From the sequence record MN850609.1: 64,000 bases of DNA; one strand, 5' to 3'. The notes under the pieces are model-generated. The model was not told where the DNA came from. It saw nothing but the letters and a program-made list of their open reading frames with translations, and did no database searches. Of the stretch, positions 3,433 to 61,633 are shown piece by piece; the stretch's first letter is position 1, and each line of letters begins with the position of its first letter. Source of the DNA: Escherichia phage dhaeg. The translations under genes were made by a program, and so were the position numbers.

Positions 3433-4221
3433 TTAAACTCGGCTGCCGTGAATAGTACCAACGTTTTGCCAAGAAGGAGCATTACCTGTAACGGCTGCAC
3501 CAGCAGAACCACCTGCAGAAGTATAAACGTTAGAACCCCATCCTCGTCCGCCGCCAGCACCAACGTTACCACCATTACCTGCACCGTATTGGACCGTGGT
3601 ACCACCTGTGCCTGCAGCAGTTAGGGATGCGTTTGAACCTGACAATATGCTATCTGAACCGATTTTGCCGCCGACACCAAATGGTCTACCACCACCGCCA
3701 CCACAGGAACCGTTAGTCGGGTAGTTATTTTGCAATGATACTGCGCCACCGCCACCGCCACCACCAGCAATAGTACCGTTGTTCCGAATGCGTAATTTGG
3801 TTCCTGCTGAGTTACGTATCGCAACACCGCCATTTCCACCTGCTGAACCGTTAGTTGAACCATTACCGCCGCGTCCATAAACAGTTACACCACTATTAAT
3901 AGTAAGTTGAATATATGCATTAGGAAGGTCGCTAGGAAATTCTAAACAAGCATTACCTGTACTATTAGATACTATGTTGCCGGTTACTGTGATAACGACA
4001 GGCGCACTGCCTTGGGCCCTCATCCAATTAATTAGTGTATTTTTGTCATAAGAGTTATTAGCCCCTATTGAATAGTAAATTTCTTTTGATTGGTTAGCCA
4101 TTGAACCCATCCAACCAGGAACAGCTACACGAACGTCTCGCATTGCCGCATCCATCCAACGTTGACCTGTTTCATCAACTGCGGATTGTCCAATCCAACC
4201 AGGTAATCCTACAATTGCCAT
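3433..4221 (-). CDS. 38: gp38 receptor-recognising adhesin, T2-type with glycine-rich motifs
   Basis: 262 aa; N-terminus MAIVGLPGWIGQSAVDE typical of T2-type gp38; poly-Gly tracts (GGGGGGG, GGGGGRPFGVGG) separated by variable segments. Confidence 0.8.
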   Translation of the reverse strand: MAIVGLPGWIGQSAVDETGQRWMDAAMRDVRVAVPGWMGSMANQSKEIYYSIGANNSYDKNTLINWMRAQGSAPVVITVTGNIVSNSTGNACLEFPSDLPNAYIQLTINSGVTVYGRGGNGSTNGSAGGNGGVAIRNSAGTKLRIRNNGTIAGGGGGGGAVSLQNNYPTNGSCGGGGGRPFGVGGKIGSDSILSGSNASLTAAGTGGTTVQYGAGNGGNVGAGGGRGWGSNVYTSAGGSAGAAVTGNAPSWQNVGTIHGSRV

Positions 4222-4232
4222 TATAAATCCTT

Positions 4233-4250
4233 AGAGGGCCGAAGCCCTCT
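4233..4250 (-). other. stem-loop between genes 37 and 38 (agagggc-cgaa-gccctct)
   Basis: perfect 7-bp GC-rich inverted repeat with 4-nt loop; no T-run follows on the minus strand, so likely an RNA stability or processing hairpin rather than a terminator. Confidence 0.4.
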
Positions 4251-4252
4251 TA

Positions 4253-7200
4253 TTAGTTTAACTTAGCTTCAAGTTCTTTTACTTTAGCCGACAGGGTTTT
4301 AACTGCTTCAATTAATAGAGCAACTTGTGCCTGAGTCGAAACTGTCAGAACTTTATTACCTTTGATATCTTCAACTTCACGAATAGCTTCAGGTAATACA
4401 TCATTCAATTTCTGAGCAATAACACCAGCTTCAGTATGAACAACCTCTCCACCAATATAATCAGCTTTATCATAGATTAAACCATCAAGCTGTTCAACCT
4501 TTTCAAGAGCGTTTTCAATTGGTTTGAAGTTTGATTTCAAACGAATATCAGAACGAATATAAACGTTTGGAGCATTTATATTCATATCTGAATAAGTGTC
4601 GCCACCTTGGAATCTCATTCGGCGGGCGGCATTGGTCCAAACTTCTAAAAGCCCGTCACCAACTTGTCTGAAACCCGTATCGTTATCGCCAATTGCAATC
4701 GAGTTACCACCCCAGGCATTAGTTGTGTTGACACCAAAGGCACCAATTTGAGGCGTATTAATCTTGGTATTAACGTTAAGAGTAGTTATACCGTTTACTT
4801 CACACTGGTTATATGAAGAACGGTTTGCACCACCTGGAGTTTTTTCGAAATAAACAATATAATTTGATTCGTCAGCTATTTCAATACGGTTTCCACGAGA
4901 AGCATCACCTGCATGGAATATACACATGTTTCTCGGGTTCGCCCCAGACTTATCAAAGTTAATGCTTCCATTATTTTTGAGGTTAAGGCCATTATAAAAC
5001 TCTGCAACTCCAGAAACACTCATAGAGTTTGAAATAGTTACTTTACCGGAAGCAATATTGATAGAAAAAGGCCTTAAACTGTTGTTAGAACCAGAGGCTT
5101 TAGTCTTATCAGTGTCAGTGTTCTTATCTGTTAATAATATATGGAACGTCGTACCATCATTATAAAACAGAGTAGCGGCAGAACCACTTTCATCACCATT
5201 GGATTTATGGCGGAAACCTACAGTTGTATTAGCAACAAAGGTGGCATTTGTAGAAATATTAGAACTACCCGCGTCAAAAACGTCTGAGCTATTATTAAGA
5301 AGTTTAAAAACACGACCTTTAACAGTATCTACAGGAAGCTCTTCTACCGGTGATTGCGTAGGCCCGTATAATCCATGAACTACTACTGAGGCGTTTTCTG
5401 AAGTGCTATATTCTAGAGTAAGTCTATTTAAATAAGTGCCACAATTAATATAAACATCATACTCATCGCCTGAGGTATTAACATACGCAATATCTTTAAT
5501 AGCATCTGTTTCACGTTGCCATAAAACACCGTTAATTCCTTTAGGCGTATTATTACCAGAACGTAATACAATTTCATTAATTGTTGCTTGTTTGAAAATA
5601 CCAACGTTAAAACCAGAGCCGCCTGTTATTTTAAATTGGACCGTAGCTACACCTTGAGGCATATTTACTGTTGCCAATTTATACCAACCACTTGCAGAAG
5701 AATAGTTAATCCAGCCCGTGGTAACTTTGCGGTCTAAAGTAGTATTCAGGTTAGAGAAATTACCAGAACCACCAGTGATATTACCATCCGTACCTAGATA
5801 AACAGAACCGCCAGCAGAAACACGTTTAGGAGATACAAAATCACCTGATTTAGTGAATTCCCAACCGTAGTCCGCAATCTGAGCACCGGTCGAACCACCA
5901 TCACCACCAGCATGATAATGAACGCGGAAGTTGCCGTTATTCAACAAAGTACCGATTGAAAAACATCCATTACCCTGAACATAACGTTGCTTAATCATTG
6001 GAACATAAGTGCTAGTATCATCTCGGTCAATATTCATGTAGAATGGAGCGCGGACATTTTCATTATTCTGGGAAGCAAATGAACCTGCACCAGCTGAACG
6101 ACCATTTGCATCCATCAAAGCATTTATATAAGCACCGTTTTCCAGGTCCATACGATAGTTAGGGTTAATTTTAGAATGACTGTTAATTGTAATCAAGAAT
6201 GCTTTGGTATCAATATTCAGCAGGCCATCGCCTCGAGCCGAGTTGCCTATCATTAAAGAATGGCCTATATTAATTGCGCCAGTACCTAATTCAATACTAA
6301 ATGGACGTAAATTGCTTATCGGCCCGTTTTCCCCTTCGTTTTCATTGGTTGGGATAATATGCAATGATGTTTCTGAGCGGCGGAAAATAGCCCCATACCG
6401 GTCGTTCCAAATTCTTAATGCGTCGTTAACGCCACCAATTTTAACCTGGCCGCTTATATTAGCGCCGCCGCGAATAGCCGCTCCATTTTCAAAAGTAACA
6501 CCACCACCAAAAGAACCTTTACCTGAAGCGGTAATATCGCCAAGACCAACGATATGACCTGTTTCAACAGTTCCGTTAAACTTAAAATTAACAGGTCCTA
6601 CACCACCAGCAACGGATGGATTAGTACGTTGAGCATAGAAATAATATCCTTGTGAGTCTGATACTTCGAATACAGTTTCTCTATTACCACCGCCCGCGTT
6701 AAATGAGTTACCCCATGCCTTAATTGTAACGGTATTTTTGTTCTGGCCATTTCGGGTGCCGGCGTCCCAGTTAATGGTTTTAGTACCATCTACACCGGAA
6801 GGAGCTTTAAATGATAATGCATTGGTATTATCATCACCGTTTAAAAATAAACCAGTACGCATAGAAATGCGATTGGTGGAGTCAAATGTACCATCTGCTC
6901 TAATAGCAACTCTATTGGACCCGGTTTTAACATCTAAAATACCCGGCTCAACAAGAAGCCCGTCGCCCATACTAACAGACATACGACCTTGGCCACGGAA
7001 ATAGTGATACATCTTTGCATTGCTGCTATAACCGATATGAGTCTGCCCATCACCGTTATTATTATCGTCGACATCAGTGCGTGCAGTAAACATTGCTTGG
7101 TTGTTATTTGGGAAATCCCATGTAGTACCTGAATCACGGCTATAACCAACCATCAATTTCTTAGTGCTATTAATACCGTTATTCAAAATGGTAGCAGATG

Positions 7201-53448: not shown

Positions 53449-54861
53449 ATGGCTTTTACTGTAAGTATAGCCGGCACAGCGTCTATTAAAATAGGCGAAA
53501 GTGCTAACTACACTGCTACCGCAACAGGTGCAGCTGTAGAAGGAACCATTACATATGTATGGTCTATTGATGGTGCTTCTAATCCAGAAGCAACCAATGT
53601 TTTGAAATATACAGGTGCTGCACCTGTAGGTAAGAAAGTTTTAAAAGTAGTAGCAACTTCTACTCCGGCTGAAGGCGAACCTGAGGTAGCTGAAGATACT
53701 TTTGAAGTTACCGTAGCTAATAAGACCATGTCTATTTCTTTGGCTTTGGACCCTATTTCTGTTTCTAAAGAAGTTGGCCAATCTCAAGTTGTTACTGCTA
53801 ACGTGACGGGTGCACCTGCAGGTGCAACAATTGCTTATGTTTGGAAACGTAACACCAGCGTAATCTCTGGCCAAACTGGTAAAACTATTACTGTAACCGA
53901 AGCCGCGGAAGCAAATTACACGTTGAACTGTGAAGTTACTGTTACCGCCCCTGAATATAACCCGGGTACCGCTACTAAAGGTGCTGCGGTAACTTTTGTT
54001 AAGAAAACTATATCAGGTGTTTCTGTTACTTTAACACCGGCCTCAATTAGTACAGAGAAAGACTCATCTGCACAGTTTAAAGCGGATGTAGTCGGCGCTC
54101 CTTCCGGCGTAAATGCAACTTATTCTTGGAAGAAAAACGGTTCTATTATTCCGGGCGAAAGCAGTAATACTCTTGCTGTTGATACGTCTACAATAGGTTC
54201 TTACTCTATTGAAGTTTCGGTACTCCTAAAAGGTACGGATTATAATGATTTAACCGTTACCAAAACAGGAAGTGTAACAATTACTAAAAAGACTATGGCA
54301 GGTGTTTCTGTTAATTTAACGCCTGCTTCTATTACTGTCTCTGAAGGAATCCCGGCTTCTTTTAAAGCCACGGTAGTCGGTGCGCCTAGTGGTGCTACTT
54401 TTGCTTATTCTTGGAAGAAAGATGGTTCACCTGTTGTGGGTGCTACGGATACATTAGTAATTGACACAAGCGCTGAAGGTTCACAGGTTATTGAAGTTTC
54501 TGTTGTGGTTTCGGCTACCGACTATAATTCTGTGACCGTCACAAAATCCGGTAATGTAACAATTACGGCTAAAGTCGCTCCTGAACCAGAGGGCGAACTA
54601 CCTTACGTTCATCCGCTACCAGTTCGTAATTCAGCTTATATTTGGTGTGGTTGGTGGGTTATGGACGAAATTCAGAAAATGACCCTTGAAGGCAAAGACT
54701 GGAAAACTGACGAACCTGATAGTGAATATTATCTCCATCGTTATACCCTTCAAAAAATGGTAGCCGATTATCCTGAGGTTGATGTACAGGAATCTCGTAA
54801 TGGTAGAATTATTCACAGAACCGCTTTGGATGCTGGAATTATTTACGATTACGTTTATTAA
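53449..54861 (+). CDS. hoc: Hoc highly antigenic outer capsid protein, four Ig-like repeats + capsid-binding C-terminus
   Basis: 470 aa; C-terminus PEPEGELPYVHPLP...AYIWCGWWVMDEIQKMT.EGKDWKTD.PDS.YYLHRYTLQKM..DYPEVDVQESRNG.IIH.TAL matches T4 Hoc; four tandem ~90-aa Ig-like repeats. Confidence 0.92.
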   Translation: MAFTVSIAGTASIKIGESANYTATATGAAVEGTITYVWSIDGASNPEATNVLKYTGAAPVGKKVLKVVATSTPAEGEPEVAEDTFEVTVANKTMSISLALDPISVSKEVGQSQVVTANVTGAPAGATIAYVWKRNTSVISGQTGKTITVTEAAEANYTLNCEVTVTAPEYNPGTATKGAAVTFVKKTISGVSVTLTPASISTEKDSSAQFKADVVGAPSGVNATYSWKKNGSIIPGESSNTLAVDTSTIGSYSIEVSVLLKGTDYNDLTVTKTGSVTITKKTMAGVSVNLTPASITVSEGIPASFKATVVGAPSGATFAYSWKKDGSPVVGATDTLVIDTSAEGSQVIEVSVVVSATDYNSVTVTKSGNVTITAKVAPEPEGELPYVHPLPVRNSAYIWCGWWVMDEIQKMTLEGKDWKTDEPDSEYYLHRYTLQKMVADYPEVDVQESRNGRIIHRTALDAGIIYDYVY

Positions 54862-54864
54862 TAA

Positions 54865-54886
54865 AGGGCCGCAAGGCCCTTATTTA
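54865..54886 (+). terminator. terminator after hoc
   Basis: agggcc-gcaa-ggccct + TATTT (weak T-run). Confidence 0.45.
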
Positions 54887-54946
54887 GTTTATGATAATGT
54901 TTCGGGAGATTAAGTTATTGACGAATAATTTTTAATAGGTGGATAT

Positions 54947-55126
54947 ATGAAATTTAACAAAGATATAGGGTTGTTGGTTTTCTTTATAGTGCTGTTTTTG
55001 TTTTCGTTAATTTCATTAACTAGTGGGTTGTTTGCTTCTATATTGGCTCTTTTCACATGCATTAGTTCCTTTTTTGGGATAATAGCTACTATAGATAAAA
55101 TTTTACATACCAAAAAGGGCCCGTAG
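54947..55126 (+). CDS. small hydrophobic ORF (59 aa, predicted membrane peptide)
   Basis: MKFNKDIGLLVFFIVLFLFSLISLTSGLFASILALFTCISSFFGIIA...; sits between convergent terminators; weak SD. Confidence 0.3.
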   Translation: MKFNKDIGLLVFFIVLFLFSLISLTSGLFASILALFTCISSFFGIIATIDKILHTKKGP

Positions 55127-55140
55127 GCCCTTTATTATTT
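55114..55140. terminator. bidirectional terminator
   Basis: aaagggcc-cgta-ggcccttt with T-runs on both strands. Confidence 0.6.
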
Positions 55141-56001
55141 TTCAGGAGGGACGTAAACTAAGTCTTTCCTTTCTAAGATGTAGCCATTTCTCGACTCTTG
55201 TATCTCTACTTCAGGATACTTAGACAAAAGGTCGGCTACTTTTTGTAACTCACATTTATACTTGTATGGGCTGTTGTTTATATCCAAAGTCCAATCTTCT
55301 CCCAATCTAACGGCTTCTCTTATTTCGTCCCATACCCACCAACCTATCCACATATACGATTCATTTCTTCCACCGCCATAGGGTAAATAAGCATTAAGGT
55401 CGTTATCATATATGAAAGGGCACTGCAATACATCATCCCTAGGTTTTATTTCAACTAAAAGTTCTTCAGAAGCAGGGATATATGCTCCTTCGCAGGTCGC
55501 TATAGATTTTAATGTATAATCTCCAAATTTATCAGGGTCGTCTATTAATATATCAATATCTTCGTCTTTAGATAATTCTACTCCATCTCTATACCATCTA
55601 CAAATTCTTTCGGCATAAGTGGGTTCCACTCTACACGACGGGCGAAGTGAAACTGTTTCTCCTATATTGGCATATATTAATTCCCTAGAGTTTATATCTA
55701 GGACTATTCTTCTTGGAAGGGTACCTATTTCAAGTTCTATTTCGTTACTCTTTGTTATTTCACCACTTTTCTTATTTGTTATGGTCGCATAAAATGTTCC
55801 TGCCGCCGGGAATCCTACTTCCCATAAATTTAATTCAAAAGGGTCTTCGGTAGGAAGTTGTGGAATATGGACATCGTTTTTATACCAATTAATTTCTACG
55901 TCATCTAGAGTAGAACCGGGTGGTAATACAAACCCGGTATAAAAGGTTACTGTCCTGCCAACCAATTCATATCTAGGACCATTTATTTTAAGTACAATCA
56001 T
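55135..56001 (-). CDS. Hoc-like protein (Ig-like N-terminal domains + Hoc-type capsid-binding C-terminal domain)
   Basis: 288 aa; C-terminus YMWIGWWVWDEIREAVRLGEDWTLD...YKYKCELQKVADLLSKYPEVEIQESRNGYILERKDL aligns with Hoc C-terminus. Confidence 0.7.
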   Translation of the reverse strand: MIVLKINGPRYELVGRTVTFYTGFVLPPGSTLDDVEINWYKNDVHIPQLPTEDPFELNLWEVGFPAAGTFYATITNKKSGEITKSNEIELEIGTLPRRIVLDINSRELIYANIGETVSLRPSCRVEPTYAERICRWYRDGVELSKDEDIDILIDDPDKFGDYTLKSIATCEGAYIPASEELLVEIKPRDDVLQCPFIYDNDLNAYLPYGGGRNESYMWIGWWVWDEIREAVRLGEDWTLDINNSPYKYKCELQKVADLLSKYPEVEIQESRNGYILERKDLVYVPPEK

Positions 56002-56010
56002 TTAACCTCC

Positions 56011-57516
56011 TTAAAACGTGCTCATATTGGTATGGTCTTCGACAGAAAATAAAACTTCAACAGGGATATCTGTAGTCGTATTAAGAGGGCCGCCTACAAT
56101 AAACACAGATACAGTGTAGTATTTTCTAGTATCACGGTCAAATATTTCGTAACGGTTAAATTGTCTTGCACTAGAATAAGCCAAATCGTCGAATAATTCA
56201 GGAGATGATGACCACAACACATTACTCCAGTTGGCACATTCTATTCCGTTTTCATAGTTGGTAAATCTTTTAATATCAAGCCTATTAGTAAGACCTGCAT
56301 TAGTAGCCCTTATATGGATGCCTACAGATGAGTACATGCGAACATGAAGAACCATATTAAGGTCCCACAAACGTATTTCCTTCCACTCTGAAGTGTTCAG
56401 AGGCTTATCAAATCTTAAAGAGCCTTTCCAATATCTAGGTGGATAGAATGGGAAAAGTTTATCATATAAAGATTTTAATTGAGACTGGGTTAAAGAATCG
56501 ACATCAAATACTGCATCTTTGCCTGGCGCACCTGCAGGACCTATAGGACCTTGAATACCTTGTGGCCCGGGTTCACCCTTTTCACCTTTAGGACCTGGGT
56601 CGCCTTGCGGTCCTTGGGCACCTTGCTCTCCAGGTGCACCATCTTCTCCGGGATTTCCTGGACGCCCTTCTTTTACAAATAAATTCCAATAATCGGCCCA
56701 CAGGTCTCCACTCCCAGGATAACTATCATTATTTGCTATATTATCCTGGATACAAATCCAAGAAGACCCTTCGCACTGGACCAAATCGTTTATATAATAA
56801 GACGAACCAAGGGCCCAGTTTCCGGCCCAGATAAACCCATTACCATCTTGGCCTGGCGCGCCTTGTGGACCTTGAGGGCCGGTTGGGCCTGTTGGTCCTT
56901 GAGGACCTGGTGCACCGATATTAGCCAATAGTGCCCAAACTCCTTCGCTAGGAGGTATTGTTCCTGTATTAGAACTGATGCAAAAATAAGAAGCTCCCTG
57001 GTATCCAACTGCATCGTCTTTAGAGTATTGGGTAGATTCATCCCAGGCTCCCTTCCACACCAAACCTGCCGGGCCTATAGGACCTTGTGGTCCTTGCGGT
57101 CCTACTTCTCCTTGGGCCCCTTGTAAACCCTGAGGGCCTTCTTTTCCTGGTGAACCCGGGTCTCCTTTAGGACCTTCTGGACCTGCTGGTCCTGGTTCGC
57201 CCTTTTCTCCTTTAGGACCGGGGTTACCTTGAATACCTTGCGGCCCTGGGTCTCCTTTAGGGCCTTGTGGACCTTCAGTACCAGGTGTTAGCATCTCATT
57301 AGTTATACCTAAATGGGCCAACGCGCCTTCCCTAGAAGCTTGTTTTATAAATTCAAGTCCATAGCTTTGAGAAGAATCTAGCATAGTAGGGTCTAAGGTG
57401 CTTTCACTAGTGAGTATGTCCACAAATTCCAATGATTTGTTCTGTGGAACTTCTACTAATGATACGCCTCTAAAGTGGCCTCTACCATCATGCCCGTATA
57501 ATGGATTGTCTGACAT
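56011..57516 (-). CDS. collagen-like triple-helix repeat protein
   Basis: 501 aa; three blocks of G-x-y repeats rich in Pro/Gln/Lys/Glu ([49 protein letters not shown]...), interspersed with repeated W.G.W...Y..D.V...G.S..CI globular segments. Confidence 0.75.
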
Positions 57517-57526
57517 AAAATCTCCT

Positions 57527-57556
57527 GTTTACAAGTTAAAATTCTCATGTTACTAT
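57527..57556 (+). promoter_or_regulatory. early promoter (GTTTAC, 18 nt, TACTAT)
   Basis: gtttac 57527-57532; tactat 57551-57556. Confidence 0.5.
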
Positions 57557-57585
57557 TGAATAGTTCAAATCACAAGAGAACTGTT

Positions 57586-57798
57586 ATGGATAAGATTAAA
57601 GTACATTTTTTACATGAATCGGGTATGAATTTTATTGATATTGCTAAAAAGATTGGCGGAACTGCCAGAGATATGGCTAAAGCCTGGGCCGAAGTTGAGA
57701 ATGCTAAGGCCAAGTTTAAAGCAAAAGAGAAAGTTGTGTATCGTAAAAGATTAAACAACAAAAAGGTCAGCGCAAAGCGCGTTTTTGGTCTAAAGTAA
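57586..57798 (+). CDS. small basic protein with possible helix-turn-helix (70 aa)
   Basis: MDKIKVHFLHESGMNFIDIAKKIGGTARDMAKAW... then Lys/Arg-rich tail. Confidence 0.4.
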   Translation: MDKIKVHFLHESGMNFIDIAKKIGGTARDMAKAWAEVENAKAKFKAKEKVVYRKRLNNKKVSAKRVFGLK

Positions 57799-57912: not shown

Positions 57913-58920
57913 ATGTTCAAGAAATATAGCAGTCTGGAAAACCACTACAACAGTAAGTTTATCGAAAAACTCCGTACCAATGGTTTGACTGGTGGTGAAT
58001 GGGTAGCACGTGAGAAGATTCATGGAACCAACTTTAGTTTAATCATAGAACGTGACGCAGTCACATGCGCCAAGCGCACTGGCCCAATTCTCCCTGCTGA
58101 AGATTTCTATGGTTATGAAATTGTACTTAAGAACTACGCTGATTCTATTAAATCTATACAAGATATTATGGAAACTTCAGCAGCCGTATCTTATCAAGTT
58201 TTCGGTGAATTCGCTGGAACAGGCATTCAGAAGAACGTTGATTACGGTGATAAAGATTTTTATGTATTTGACATTATTGTTACCACCGAAAGCGGCGATG
58301 TGACTTATGTCGACGATTATATGATGGAATCATTTTGTAAGACGTTCAAATTTAAAATGGCACCACTTTTAGGTCGTGGTAAATTTGAAGACCTTATTAA
58401 ATTGCCAAATGATTTAGATTCCGTCCTTCCTGATTATAATTTTACAGTAGATAATGTCGGGCTAGCCGAAGCTAATGCTCATGTGTGGAATGCCGAAGCA
58501 AAAGGCGAAGTATTTACCGCTGAAGGGTACGTATTAAAACCTTGTTATCCGCTTTGGCTGCCTAATGGAAATCGTGTAGCAATTAAATGCAAGAACTCTA
58601 AATTCAGCGAGAAGAAAAAAACTGATAAGCCTATTAAAGTTGCAGTAGTATTATCCCAAGACGATTTAGATTTATTACAACAATTCACAGATTATGTGAC
58701 TGTTAACCGTATTAACAACGTTATCAGTAAGATTGGTGAAGTATCACCTAAAGATTTTGGAAAGGTAATGGGACTGACGGTCCAAGATATTTTGGAAGAG
58801 GCAGCCCGCGAAGAATTAGAATTAACCGATGCAGAAAACCCTGTTGAAGTTAAAAAGCAGCTTATTGAGTGCGTTAAAGATACGCTACGAGCTGTATGGA
58901 TTGAATTAGTATCCAAATAA
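57913..58920 (+). CDS. rnlB: RNA ligase 2
   Basis: 335 aa; near-colinear with T4 Rnl2 ([65 protein letters not shown]). Confidence 0.97.
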
Positions 58921-58926
58921 ACAATA

Positions 58927-58955
58927 AAGGGACCTTACGGTCCCTTTTATTTTTC
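58927..58955 (+). terminator. terminator after rnlB
   Basis: aagggacc-ttac-ggtccctt + TTATTTTT. Confidence 0.6.
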
Positions 58956-60227
58956 TAGTGGTGGAAGTTTAACACCGAGATAAGAACTCAACTGGCTTTG
59001 GTTAGCCATTTTGTCCATATCAGAACCATCAATAATGCGGGCTTCTTTATCGTCCTTAGCGACGGTATAAGGGTTTGCAGTCAATGCATAACGAGCAAGC
59101 AATGCTACTGTAGGTTGTAAGCTTTCTGGGTCAACAATAACCTTAAATTCACCTACTGAAGTATCACCTTCTTCATCAACCACATCCAAACCTTCCGTAT
59201 AAGGCGCATAATATAAAGATGCGACCGTCTGTCCTTCACCCATCTGAGCATTTACACCAACAATAACATAATCACATGGACTATTCATATCGGCATAAAG
59301 AGGTAGACCATTCTTTAATACACCATAAGCCAATTCATCTTGGTCTTCCTTTTTCTCAACCCAACCGGATGCAGCGAGAATAGCAGCACAACGAGAACTA
59401 GCTACGGCATAAGTCCCAGCGAAAGAAGTTTGACGTTGGACGGCAGAGTTCATCTCACACATGTAATAATATAATGTACGAGCACGGTCCTGGGCATTAT
59501 CATAACGTGGGTTAGTAAGGTCCAATACGCCCTTTTCAGAAACACCCTGGACTTTAAAACGAGAACTCACTGTAATTAATGACTGTAATACGTCCTTATT
59601 AATTTCTTCTGCCATTTGAATGCCTAGCAGATTTTCAATGAAATTAGGAGCATTAAACCCGTTTGATTCTAGGTCTTGGGCTAATTCGACTGTCAATGAA
59701 GTTTTCAGTTTACGTGATTTAACTTCAGATTGCCATTTGTCAATACGGAAGCCTGCTTCAGCAATTTCAGGATGGCCTTGTTCGAATTTAGAAGTAATAG
59801 CAGCATCTGATACCATACGAATATGCCCAGCGGCCACTGCTTCAGAAATAACTTCACCGAGGTCGGTTTCCGTGGTTCCGGCGAAAGGAGATGCTTCTAG
59901 AACTTTAAACACTACACTTTCAAACTGGAACATATCGCCGGCTGCATAAGCTGTAGACGAATCGGTAAATTCAGGAATATTTTCACGTTCCGACATACCA
60001 ATCTGGCCTGCAAATGTAGCGCCACCAAGATAAGTCATTTTGTCGTCAGGGTTAAGTACACGAACCCCGTACAGAGCAGCAACAGGTTGGCTTGTTTTTT
60101 GTTCAGCAACTAGGGCTTTAAAGATTCGTTTATTAGTTGCTTGGGTGTATGAAAGAAGAGCAGGACGGCCAACCGAGTTGGCAGCCGTCAATGTGGATTC
60201 TTTAATTAGGTCTATAATCTTAGACAT
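58947..60227 (-). CDS. gp24-like capsid vertex protein, divergent paralog
   Basis: 426 aa; same domain order as gp24/gp23 fold (..RK.LKT..TVELAQDLE.NGF.AP.F.E.LL...M..EINKD.LQSLITVS.R.KV.GVS..G..DLT) but about half identical to the adjacent copy. Confidence 0.8.
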   Translation of the reverse strand: MSKIIDLIKESTLTAANSVGRPALLSYTQATNKRIFKALVAEQKTSQPVAALYGVRVLNPDDKMTYLGGATFAGQIGMSERENIPEFTDSSTAYAAGDMFQFESVVFKVLEASPFAGTTETDLGEVISEAVAAGHIRMVSDAAITSKFEQGHPEIAEAGFRIDKWQSEVKSRKLKTSLTVELAQDLESNGFNAPNFIENLLGIQMAEEINKDVLQSLITVSSRFKVQGVSEKGVLDLTNPRYDNAQDRARTLYYYMCEMNSAVQRQTSFAGTYAVASSRCAAILAASGWVEKKEDQDELAYGVLKNGLPLYADMNSPCDYVIVGVNAQMGEGQTVASLYYAPYTEGLDVVDEEGDTSVGEFKVIVDPESLQPTVALLARYALTANPYTVAKDDKEARIIDGSDMDKMANQSQLSSYLGVKLPPLEK

Positions 60228-61510
60228 TAATCAGCCTCGTAAATAATTGCTGGAAGTTTAACACCAAGCAGATAAGACATATTACTCTGACCAGCCATTA
60301 AATCCATATTGGTTGCATCGATAACACGAGCTTCTTTATCGTCTTTAGCTACGGTGTACGGGTTAGCGGACAGTGCATAACGAACCATCAGAGAAATAGA
60401 AGGCTGTAATGAATCCGGGTCGACAATAACCTTATAAGCACCAACGTGTTCTTGGTCGTCTAAATCCAGGCCTTCTGTATATGGGGCATAGAAAATAGAA
60501 CCGACAACTTCATTACCACCATAGTTCTCTTTAACACCTACGATAACATAATCCAATGGGCTGTTAACGTCACAGAACAGAGGTAATCCATTCAACAAAT
60601 AACCATAGGCCGTTTCTGGGAGCCAATTATTATCTTCAGGTCTATGTTTTAACCAGCCAGAACCTGCAAGCATTGCAGCCACACGACTTGAAGCCACAAC
60701 AAACGTACCCGAATAAGAAGTAGTTTTCTGGATTTCAGAATTCATCTCACAAACAATTTCATAAAGTTTACGTGCAGATTCTGGAGCACTATCATAAGTC
60801 AAATCGATGATGCCATTATCAGATACACCCGTAACTTTATAGCGTTTGGATACGGTTATTAGAGATTGCAGAACATCTTTATTAATTTCATCTGCCATTA
60901 CTGTAGCCAGGAGGTCTTCTAAGAATGCAGGGGCGTCGAAGCCATTTGATTCCATATCCTGTGCTAATTCTACGGTCAAAGCAGTCTTCAATTTACGGGT
61001 CTTAACAGGGGCATTCCATTTATTAACCTGGAATACAGCATCAGAGATTTCTACATCACTCTCTTCAAATTTAGTGGTATGGGCTGCATCAGGAACCAAA
61101 CGACACGTTAATGACACCAAACCTTCTTGAAGAGCATCGGCCAATTCTGTAGCGCTAGTGGATGCGAGTGGGCTTGCTTGAAGAGCCTTATAAACCACAT
61201 TCTGATACTTAAAGTAGTCACCCTTGGCAATCGCCTGGGCTTTATCTGTGAGTTCCGGGATAGTTTCACGGTCTTTAGAACCAACTTCACCACCATAAAC
61301 TGCACCGGTTTGGAAACTGAATTCATTATCAGGGGTAAGATATTTGACACCATACAACGCAGCGATAGGTTGGTTTGTACGTTGTTCAGCGATGATATCG
61401 CGATAAATTAGTTTAGTGGTAGCACGGGTCAAAGCAACAAGATTAGGGCGACCCAATGAGTTGCTGGTAGTAGTTGTTGACTCGCGCAGTAATTCGTTAA
61501 TCTTTGCCAT
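60227..61510 (-). CDS. 24: gp24 capsid vertex protein
   Basis: 427 aa, same as T4 gp24; MAKINELLRESTTT.SNS.GRPNLVALTRATTKLIY.DI.A.QRTNQP.AA.YG.KYL.PDNEF. Confidence 0.92.
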   Translation of the reverse strand: MAKINELLRESTTTTSNSLGRPNLVALTRATTKLIYRDIIAEQRTNQPIAALYGVKYLTPDNEFSFQTGAVYGGEVGSKDRETIPELTDKAQAIAKGDYFKYQNVVYKALQASPLASTSATELADALQEGLVSLTCRLVPDAAHTTKFEESDVEISDAVFQVNKWNAPVKTRKLKTALTVELAQDMESNGFDAPAFLEDLLATVMADEINKDVLQSLITVSKRYKVTGVSDNGIIDLTYDSAPESARKLYEIVCEMNSEIQKTTSYSGTFVVASSRVAAMLAGSGWLKHRPEDNNWLPETAYGYLLNGLPLFCDVNSPLDYVIVGVKENYGGNEVVGSIFYAPYTEGLDLDDQEHVGAYKVIVDPDSLQPSISLMVRYALSANPYTVAKDDKEARVIDATNMDLMAGQSNMSYLLGVKLPAIIYEAD

Positions 61511-61538
61511 TGCGCTTTCCTTATTGAGGGTATATGTT

Positions 61539-61546
61539 TATTTATA
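61539..61546 (-). promoter_or_regulatory. late promoter TATAAATA for gene 24
   Basis: tatttata on plus strand, about 29 nt upstream of gp24 ATG. Confidence 0.55.
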
Positions 61547-61600
61547 AAAGTTGTTTACAGCAAGGTTCCCACGTGTTACTATAGTACAGAAACAAGAATG

Positions 61601-61618
61601 GGAGACCGAAGTCTCCCA
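61601..61618 (-). terminator. hairpin after gene 23 (gggagaCTTCGGtctccc on minus strand)
   Basis: perfect 7-bp stem with UUCG loop, followed on minus strand by T-rich attcttgtttct. Confidence 0.5.
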
Positions 61619-61633
61619 TAATAAGGTTAGGTC

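Follow-up and report, generated by a model that had tools for sequence, protein, structure and literature searches.

A conserved pair of gp24-type capsid vertex genes in Escherichia phage dhaeg and related T4-like phages

Escherichia phage dhaeg, a JS98-type (Dhakavirus) T4-like phage, carries two adjacent genes for capsid vertex proteins of the gp24 type, here 24a and 24b, where T4 and its close relatives carry one. We analysed the pair within a stretch of 64,000 nucleotides of sequence record MN850609.1, referred to below as the window. Comparison with other T4-like phages indicates that 24a and 24b are probably two non-redundant structural subunits that split the vertex role between them, and that they form an old module passed on as a unit. 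The most informative result beyond existing annotation is a cassette swap at the vertex locus, in which phages with nearly the same major capsid protein (gp23) carry either the pair or one different gp24.

T4 is the reference for prolate capsid assembly, and a single vertex protein is usually taken as the rule. Paired vertex genes are a known feature, annotated in about 100 sequenced T4-like phage genomes from six genera; in these phages two vertex-type proteins have persisted together over a very long period. The pair bears on whether the vertices of one head differ and on how freely the vertex module exchanges, and it may bear on escape from defences that sense the vertex protein. Relatives that manage with one gp24 and the same major capsid protein provide a natural experiment on capsid paralog specialisation. 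Many of the pair-bearing phages are therapy candidates against E. coli, Salmonella, Enterobacter and Klebsiella.

Protein identity and operon organisation

An earlier reading of the window, made from its letters alone (the sequence-only reading), had proposed two adjacent minus-strand genes of 427 and 426 amino acids with the gp24/gp23 capsid fold. The open reading frames (ORFs) and matches to the Gp23 family PF07068 (E=2e-98 and 3e-97) agree with this proposal. From end to end the two proteins share 56% identity and 77% similarity, and both are homologous to gp24 along their entire length. When compared with the T4 gp24 structure 1YUE, 24b gave E=4e-152 over residues 1-423, whereas gp23 chains reached only about 1e-11, which places 24b closer to gp24 than to gp23. 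Tequatrovirus teqhad, a close T4 relative with a single gene 24, was used for comparison of the N-terminus: 24a is 100% identical to its gp24 in residues 1-10, 82% identical in residues 11-60 and 70% identical overall, while 24b is 57% identical overall. The sequence-only reading was therefore right that the upstream copy is T4-like at its N-terminus, that the downstream copy is divergent and roughly half identical, and that T4-type phages have one gene 24. Because the identity to a solved structure is 57-70%, the fold of 24a and 24b can be taken as settled, and by sequence each is a full-length subunit of the gp24 type that combines the HK97 capsid fold with an insertion domain. The two copies are most divergent in the exposed insertion-domain region, with 41% identity, compared with 65-69% in core segments (residues 161-235 and 369-427).

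The likeness to T4 gp24 (1YUE; in situ 5VF3, 7VS5 and 8GMO) extends to the N-terminal propeptide motif. Mature T4 gp24 chains in 5VF3 and 8GMO begin at residue 11. At the corresponding position 24a has LLRE/S and the window 24b has LIKE/S, where the stroke marks the cleavage point, and the motif L-I-x-E/S is retained at the T4-aligned position in every 24b ortholog. Removal of a 10-residue propeptide from both 24a and 24b by the prohead protease is predicted from this conservation. The location is also that of a T4-type gp24, with the pair lying 3' of gene 23, behind a late promoter and ahead of rnlB, and the layout is kept in other genera.

We compared seven pair-bearing loci from six genera, in all of which the order 23-(sometimes a small insert)-24a-24b is constant: Dhakavirus (JS98), Gaprivervirus (VR7), Gelderlandvirus (S16), Kanagawavirus (IME523), Marfavirus (Marfa) and Roskildevirus (Cronus). 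A late promoter box stands at equal distance in all seven, as it does in single-gene loci, and a GC-rich hairpin follows 24b in each. A motif search found no second late promoter box within 24a, and a hairpin search found no terminator at the 24a/24b junction. The 3' end of 24a keeps a ribosome-binding site in all seven pairs (GAGG, or GTGAG in two cases), and in every one 24b begins at an ATG that shares a base with the 24a stop codon, directly follows it or sits 1 nucleotide past it. With one late promoter, one terminator and an internal ribosome-binding site, the pair has the organisation of a conserved two-gene late operon.

In the window, the TAA stop of 24a (60229-60227) and the ATG of 24b (60227-60225) have base 60227 in common, in the context GCT GAT TAATG TCT, just as the sequence-only reading had described. 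In JS98 and VR7 the stop and start are adjacent and do not overlap. The junction thus has the geometry of a coupled pair, with an overlapping or abutting stop and start and neither promoter nor terminator between them, and true translational coupling of 24a and 24b is plausible on this ground. Stop/start overlaps are common in T4-type genomes. The junction RNA was not unusually structured when compared with shuffled controls (z=0.21), and masking of the 24b start by RNA structure was not supported. Given a junction no more structured than the controls and a GAGG site of its own, dependence of 24b on translation of 24a is not implied by the sequence.

Co-occurrence, cassette exchange and age of the pair

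The 2.9-kilobase region holding the pair is 99.9% identical to Escherichia phage dhabil and 99.0% identical to CLB_P2, and 81 phage records cover at least 80% of it together with the pair. Its annotation varies: 24a/24b in JS98 and JS10, 24(1)/24(2) in VR7, capsid vertex protein I/II in VR5 and VR26, and two 'head vertex proteins' in S16 (gp108/gp109), Marfa, Cronus and many others. The pairs of JS98/JS10, VR7, VR5 and S16 are the same two-gene module with the same order and junction site, and differ from the window in nothing essential; the JS98 proteins are 95% (24a) and 91% (24b) identical to those of the window. Two head vertex proteins also appear, uncommented, in the gene table of a 2026 paper on the Dhakavirus LQ5. 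Apart from gene tables of this kind, the full-text literature that we searched, whose coverage did not include the JS98 genome paper, yielded no discussion, virion proteomics, genetics, cryo-electron microscopy or structure of the pair.

The two genes were found strictly together. In the phage collection, 91 records have 24a at 80% identity or more and 91 have 24b at the same threshold. When IMG/VR and JGI metagenome loci were retrieved by 24b-specific peptide patterns, a 24a-type gene lay directly upstream of 24b in 17/17 IMG/VR loci and in 4/4 informative metagenome loci. Across the loci examined in these three sources, neither a 24a-type nor a 24b-type gene was found on its own, and the 24b-specific patterns revealed no lineage in IMG/VR or the JGI metagenomes that has 24b as its sole vertex gene. 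A single gene 24 is carried by the sampled Tequatrovirus, Mosigvirus, Jiaodavirus, Karamvirus, Tegunavirus and Winklervirus genomes and by the sampled Acinetobacter and Aeromonas phages. The lineage of 24a is seen only in the company of 24b, and 24a is not simply a normal gp24 to which an extra copy has been added.

Some close relatives of pair-bearing phages have a single gene at the same locus, between the same flanks and next to the same or nearly the same gp23. DK-13, classified as a Gaprivervirus, has a gp23 that is 99% identical to that of the window, whereas its single gp24 is only 69% identical to 24a. Biddle_MM4 (single) and Marfa (pair) have flanks that are 98% identical in DNA towards gene 23 and 91% towards rnlB, compared with 65-74% across the vertex locus itself. 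Kanagawavirus holds both states, with a single gene in PEi20 and the pair in IME523. The single proteins of DK-13, PEi20 and Biddle_MM4 are 68-71% identical to 24a and 53-56% identical to 24b, and form a clade of their own (93-96% bootstrap) that is sister to 24a. The possibility that they are fusions of 24a and 24b was rejected, as from end to end they uniformly resemble 24a and T4-type gp24 more than 24b. Near-identical gp23 and flanks around either one or two gp24 genes indicate that the vertex locus is exchanged as a unit, even within genera, and the DK-13 and Biddle_MM4 comparisons indicate that the same major capsid lattice accepts one gp24 or 24a together with 24b.

Across Dhakavirus and Gaprivervirus, gp23 is 97-99% identical, compared with 88-95% for 24a and 89-92% for 24b. 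The vertex genes evolve or recombine at a higher rate than gene 23.

The sequence-only reading had suggested a phylogeny of both copies. Neighbour-joining trees of 27 gp24 sequences (300 bootstraps, two distance corrections) recovered a 24b clade and a 24a clade, each at 100% bootstrap. 24a grouped with Cronus 24a and the single-copy gp24s (T4, RB69, Karamvirus, DK-13, PEi20 and Biddle_MM4) at 98-99% to the exclusion of 24b, which stands as its own clade outside the T4-type gp24s, and a sister grouping of 24a and 24b received 0%. The split between the two is therefore as old as the radiation of the genera or older. Identities to outgroups are nearly equal for 24a and 24b (63% and 64% with Mineola; 58% and 57% with ZZ1), so the deep position of 24b is not merely the effect of a fast clock. 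Polarised by outgroups, 17 of the fixed differences between the copies are derived in 24b and 9 in 24a; 24b is thus the more changed copy and 24a retains more ancestral residues, although both have moved. Branching within the two clades is broadly parallel, with Cronus first, then Marfa, then the remainder, as fits co-descent of the pair. Cronus 24b is basal in the 24b clade, and Cronus 24a falls outside the 24a clade.

These trees change the meaning of the tandem duplication that the sequence-only reading had put forward. That there are two tandem gp24 paralogs holds, but a simple lineage-specific duplication does not, and a recent duplicate was rejected because the copies are not each other's closest relatives. 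As far as the sequences tell, the term is right only for an ancient event, and 24b may have arisen in place or entered from another lineage.

Ratios of non-synonymous to synonymous substitution (dN/dS, Nei-Gojobori) between orthologs were 0.04-0.10 for 24a and 0.02-0.10 for 24b. Split by region, the values nowhere exceeded 0.17, even in the most variable part of the proteins, residues 61-160; by analogy with the description of T4 (PMC9546572), these residues would correspond to the exposed insertion domain and its linkers. Positive or diversifying selection was not seen there at this regional resolution. Both copies are under strong purifying selection, with neither decaying. Gene conversion between the copies was rejected, since their identity is the same within genomes (55.6%) as between genomes (55.3%) and the longest DNA word common to both is 15 nucleotides.

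Division of the vertex role and its alternatives

Neither copy was found alone, yet the pair is replaceable by one different gp24 alongside the same gp23, and it is from this combination that we infer a split vertex role. Strict co-occurrence and equal constraint argue against a redundant or spare copy, while the conserved full length of 24b, its propeptide motif and the operon structure count against its departure from the capsid. Judged by the sequence signals, a single late message runs from the promoter 5' of 24a to the terminator 3' of 24b. The ribosome-binding site for 24b lies within the final codons of 24a and its start codon is in contact with the 24a stop, so that the two proteins are produced jointly. 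In the arrangement that we favour, both would then be cut at the 10-residue propeptide by the prohead protease, and 24a and 24b would divide the vertex role at the 11 pentameric vertices, either as separate pentamers at different vertices or as mixed pentamers.

The older paralogy of gp23 and gp24 offers a comparison. gp23 and gp24 are about 21% identical and occupy clearly distinct places, as hexamers and pentamers respectively. There a capsid-fold gene was copied and the copies specialised; 24a and 24b, which differ from gp23 and gp24 in being 56% identical, would represent a further step of the same process. In T4 bypass-24 mutants, mutated gp23 fills the vertices (PMC3012670, PMC10580926), which shows that vertex positions tolerate different paralogs.

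Several observations weigh against a divided role. All 55 gp24 subunits of T4 are conformationally alike, and their pentamers obey fivefold symmetry (PMC9546572); this equivalence means that the geometry of the shell has no obvious need for two vertex proteins, and it tempers the idea of special vertices. A single gp24 works with the same gp23, so that the shell itself does not call for a second one. The strict co-occurrence rests on related genomes and may partly reflect common descent, the trees are distance-based only, and direct virion evidence for either protein, 24b especially, was not found in the literature searched.

A more specific form of the favoured division is that both proteins are in the virion at different places, for example at the five portal-proximal vertices as opposed to the distal or apical ones, or that they form obligate mixed vertices. 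We put this forward tentatively and regard it as possible rather than probable. If true, chemical equivalence would not extend to all non-portal vertices of the prolate head of a tailed phage. There would also have been a second round of capsid-protein specialisation after the split of gp23 and gp24, possibly tied to control of head length or stability.

Alternatively, 24b could be a redundant vertex protein that is kept because bacterial defences sense the vertex protein; once one version is recognised, a second, divergent subunit would allow the phage to build heads or to dilute the trigger. In favour of this reading, the substitution A380V in gp24 allows T6 to evade type IV Thoeris (PMC13243611), and phages that are otherwise nearly the same differ by a cassette swap at the vertex locus. 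In addition, the copies differ most in the exposed insertion-domain region, and Cronus 24b has Val at the T6 escape position. However, a second protein would leave the sensed one in place, and wild-type gp24 supplied in trans restored immunity in the T6 experiments (PMC13243611). Ala380 is retained in both window copies. Moreover, redundant copies normally decay or vanish, whereas here both are constrained equally and occur strictly together. The low dN/dS of both copies, including that of the exposed insertion-domain region, likewise lends no support to a spare for antigenic variation, an idea raised by the sequence-only reading. We consider a redundant 24b maintained by defences unlikely.

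Across the aligned sequences, the residue at position 380 (T4 numbering) is Val in Cronus 24b (positions 4001-5284 of extracted locus L006) and Ala in all other 24a and 24b copies; the equivalent residue is Gly in Gravdalen, Aeromonas phage 25 and RB43.

A further alternative is that 24b has left the vertex role and become a gp24-derived assembly factor or minor head component, acting in prohead assembly or near the portal and absent or rare in mature vertices. The changes fixed specifically in 24b concentrate around the N-terminal arm, at T4 positions 27-68, and in a small number of loops elsewhere, and the 24b clade has its own insertions and deletions near T4 positions 240, 296 and 350. One gp24 is also enough with the same gp23 in DK-13 and Biddle_MM4. 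Against this reading, 24b keeps its full length, the propeptide motif, the core identity to 24a and an end-to-end match to T4 gp24. The stop/start overlap, in addition, predicts an output of the order of that of 24a, which would be atypical for a minor factor. A 24b that works away from the vertices thus seems quite improbable.

A recent tandem duplication in the window phage, or the assembly artefact that the sequence-only reading had named as a way to overturn its claim, has only adjacency and equal gene length to recommend it and can be dismissed with near certainty, as the copies are 56% identical in protein and about 65% in DNA, have no common word longer than 15 nucleotides, do not group as sisters and are present both in 81 independent records covering the region and in six genera.

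Locus layout and neighbouring genes

The minus-strand gene order in the window is 23-24a-24b, followed by the convergent rnlB (Table 1), which is likewise the neighbour in JS98, VR7 and T4-like loci. The window gp23 is 98% identical to that of JS98. Counterparts of the hairpin that follows gene 23 are found 5' of gene 24 in IME523, Marfa, Cronus, S16, teqhad and Mineola.

Table 1 Features of the vertex locus in the window
Feature	Positions	Strand	Basis or detail
Gene 23, major capsid protein, 519 amino acids	61634-63193	minus	ORF; Pfam Gp23 E=2e-122
Terminator-like hairpin 3' of gene 23	61598-61619	minus	9-bp stem, 5 GC pairs, T-rich tail
T4-type late promoter box TATAAATA	61539-61546	minus	exact match; about 29 nucleotides 5' of 24a start
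Gene 24a, T4-like capsid vertex protein, 427 amino acids	60227-61510	minus	ORF, PF07068
24a predicted 10-residue propeptide MAKINELLRE/STTT	61481-61510	minus	same as T4 residues 1-10; predicted cleavage
GAGG ribosome-binding site for 24b, within 24a 3' end	60235-60238	minus	7 nucleotides ahead of ATG
TAATG stop/start overlap of 24a and 24b	60225-60229	minus	read from sequence
Gene 24b, divergent capsid vertex paralog, 426 amino acids	58947-60227	minus	ORF, PF07068
24b predicted 10-residue propeptide MSKIIDLIKE/STLT	60198-60227	minus	aligned with T4 cleavage point; predicted cleavage
Two-way terminator hairpin common to 24b and convergent rnlB	58926-58947	both	
rnlB, RNA ligase 2, convergent neighbour	57913-58920	plus	Pfam RNA_ligase and T4_Rnl2_C

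The spacer between gene 23 and 24a (window 61511-61633) is an insertion hot spot among relatives. JS98, JS10 and VR7 differ from the window in having a small opposite-strand ORF of about 270 nucleotides there (positions 2352-2618 of extracted locus L001 and 2333-2614 of L002). IME08 and IME341 have the homing endonuclease segD in the spacer, and Gravdalen also has a homing endonuclease. The spacer is without an insert in the window, dhabil and CLB_P2.

The downstream edge of the module is variable too, as some phages have added same-strand ORFs between 24b and rnlB: Marfa (L005 5314-6105), IME523 (L004 5347-5856) and Cronus (L006 5327-6842). Their annotation is hypothetical protein, with 'tail fiber protein' and 'putative structural protein' used in Cronus; no such ORF occurs in the window.

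Beyond rnlB, the head-decoration region of the window (53449-57516) is expanded, with two Hoc-like genes that encode immunoglobulin-like domains (53449-54861, plus strand, 470 amino acids; 55135-56001, minus strand, 288 amino acids). Both proteins carry QESRNG at their C-terminal ends, a capsid-binding motif described for Hoc (PMC10385173). Adjoining them is a gene (56011-57516, minus strand) for a 501-amino-acid protein that combines collagen repeats with CBM_5_12 carbohydrate-binding modules. A similar collagen-like gene is present in VR7, whereas JS98 has one hoc gene only. A DUF2774 protein of 83 amino acids (57547-57798, plus strand; Pfam E=6e-29) is encoded between the collagen-like gene and rnlB, and Mineola has a DUF2774 gene at a similar place.

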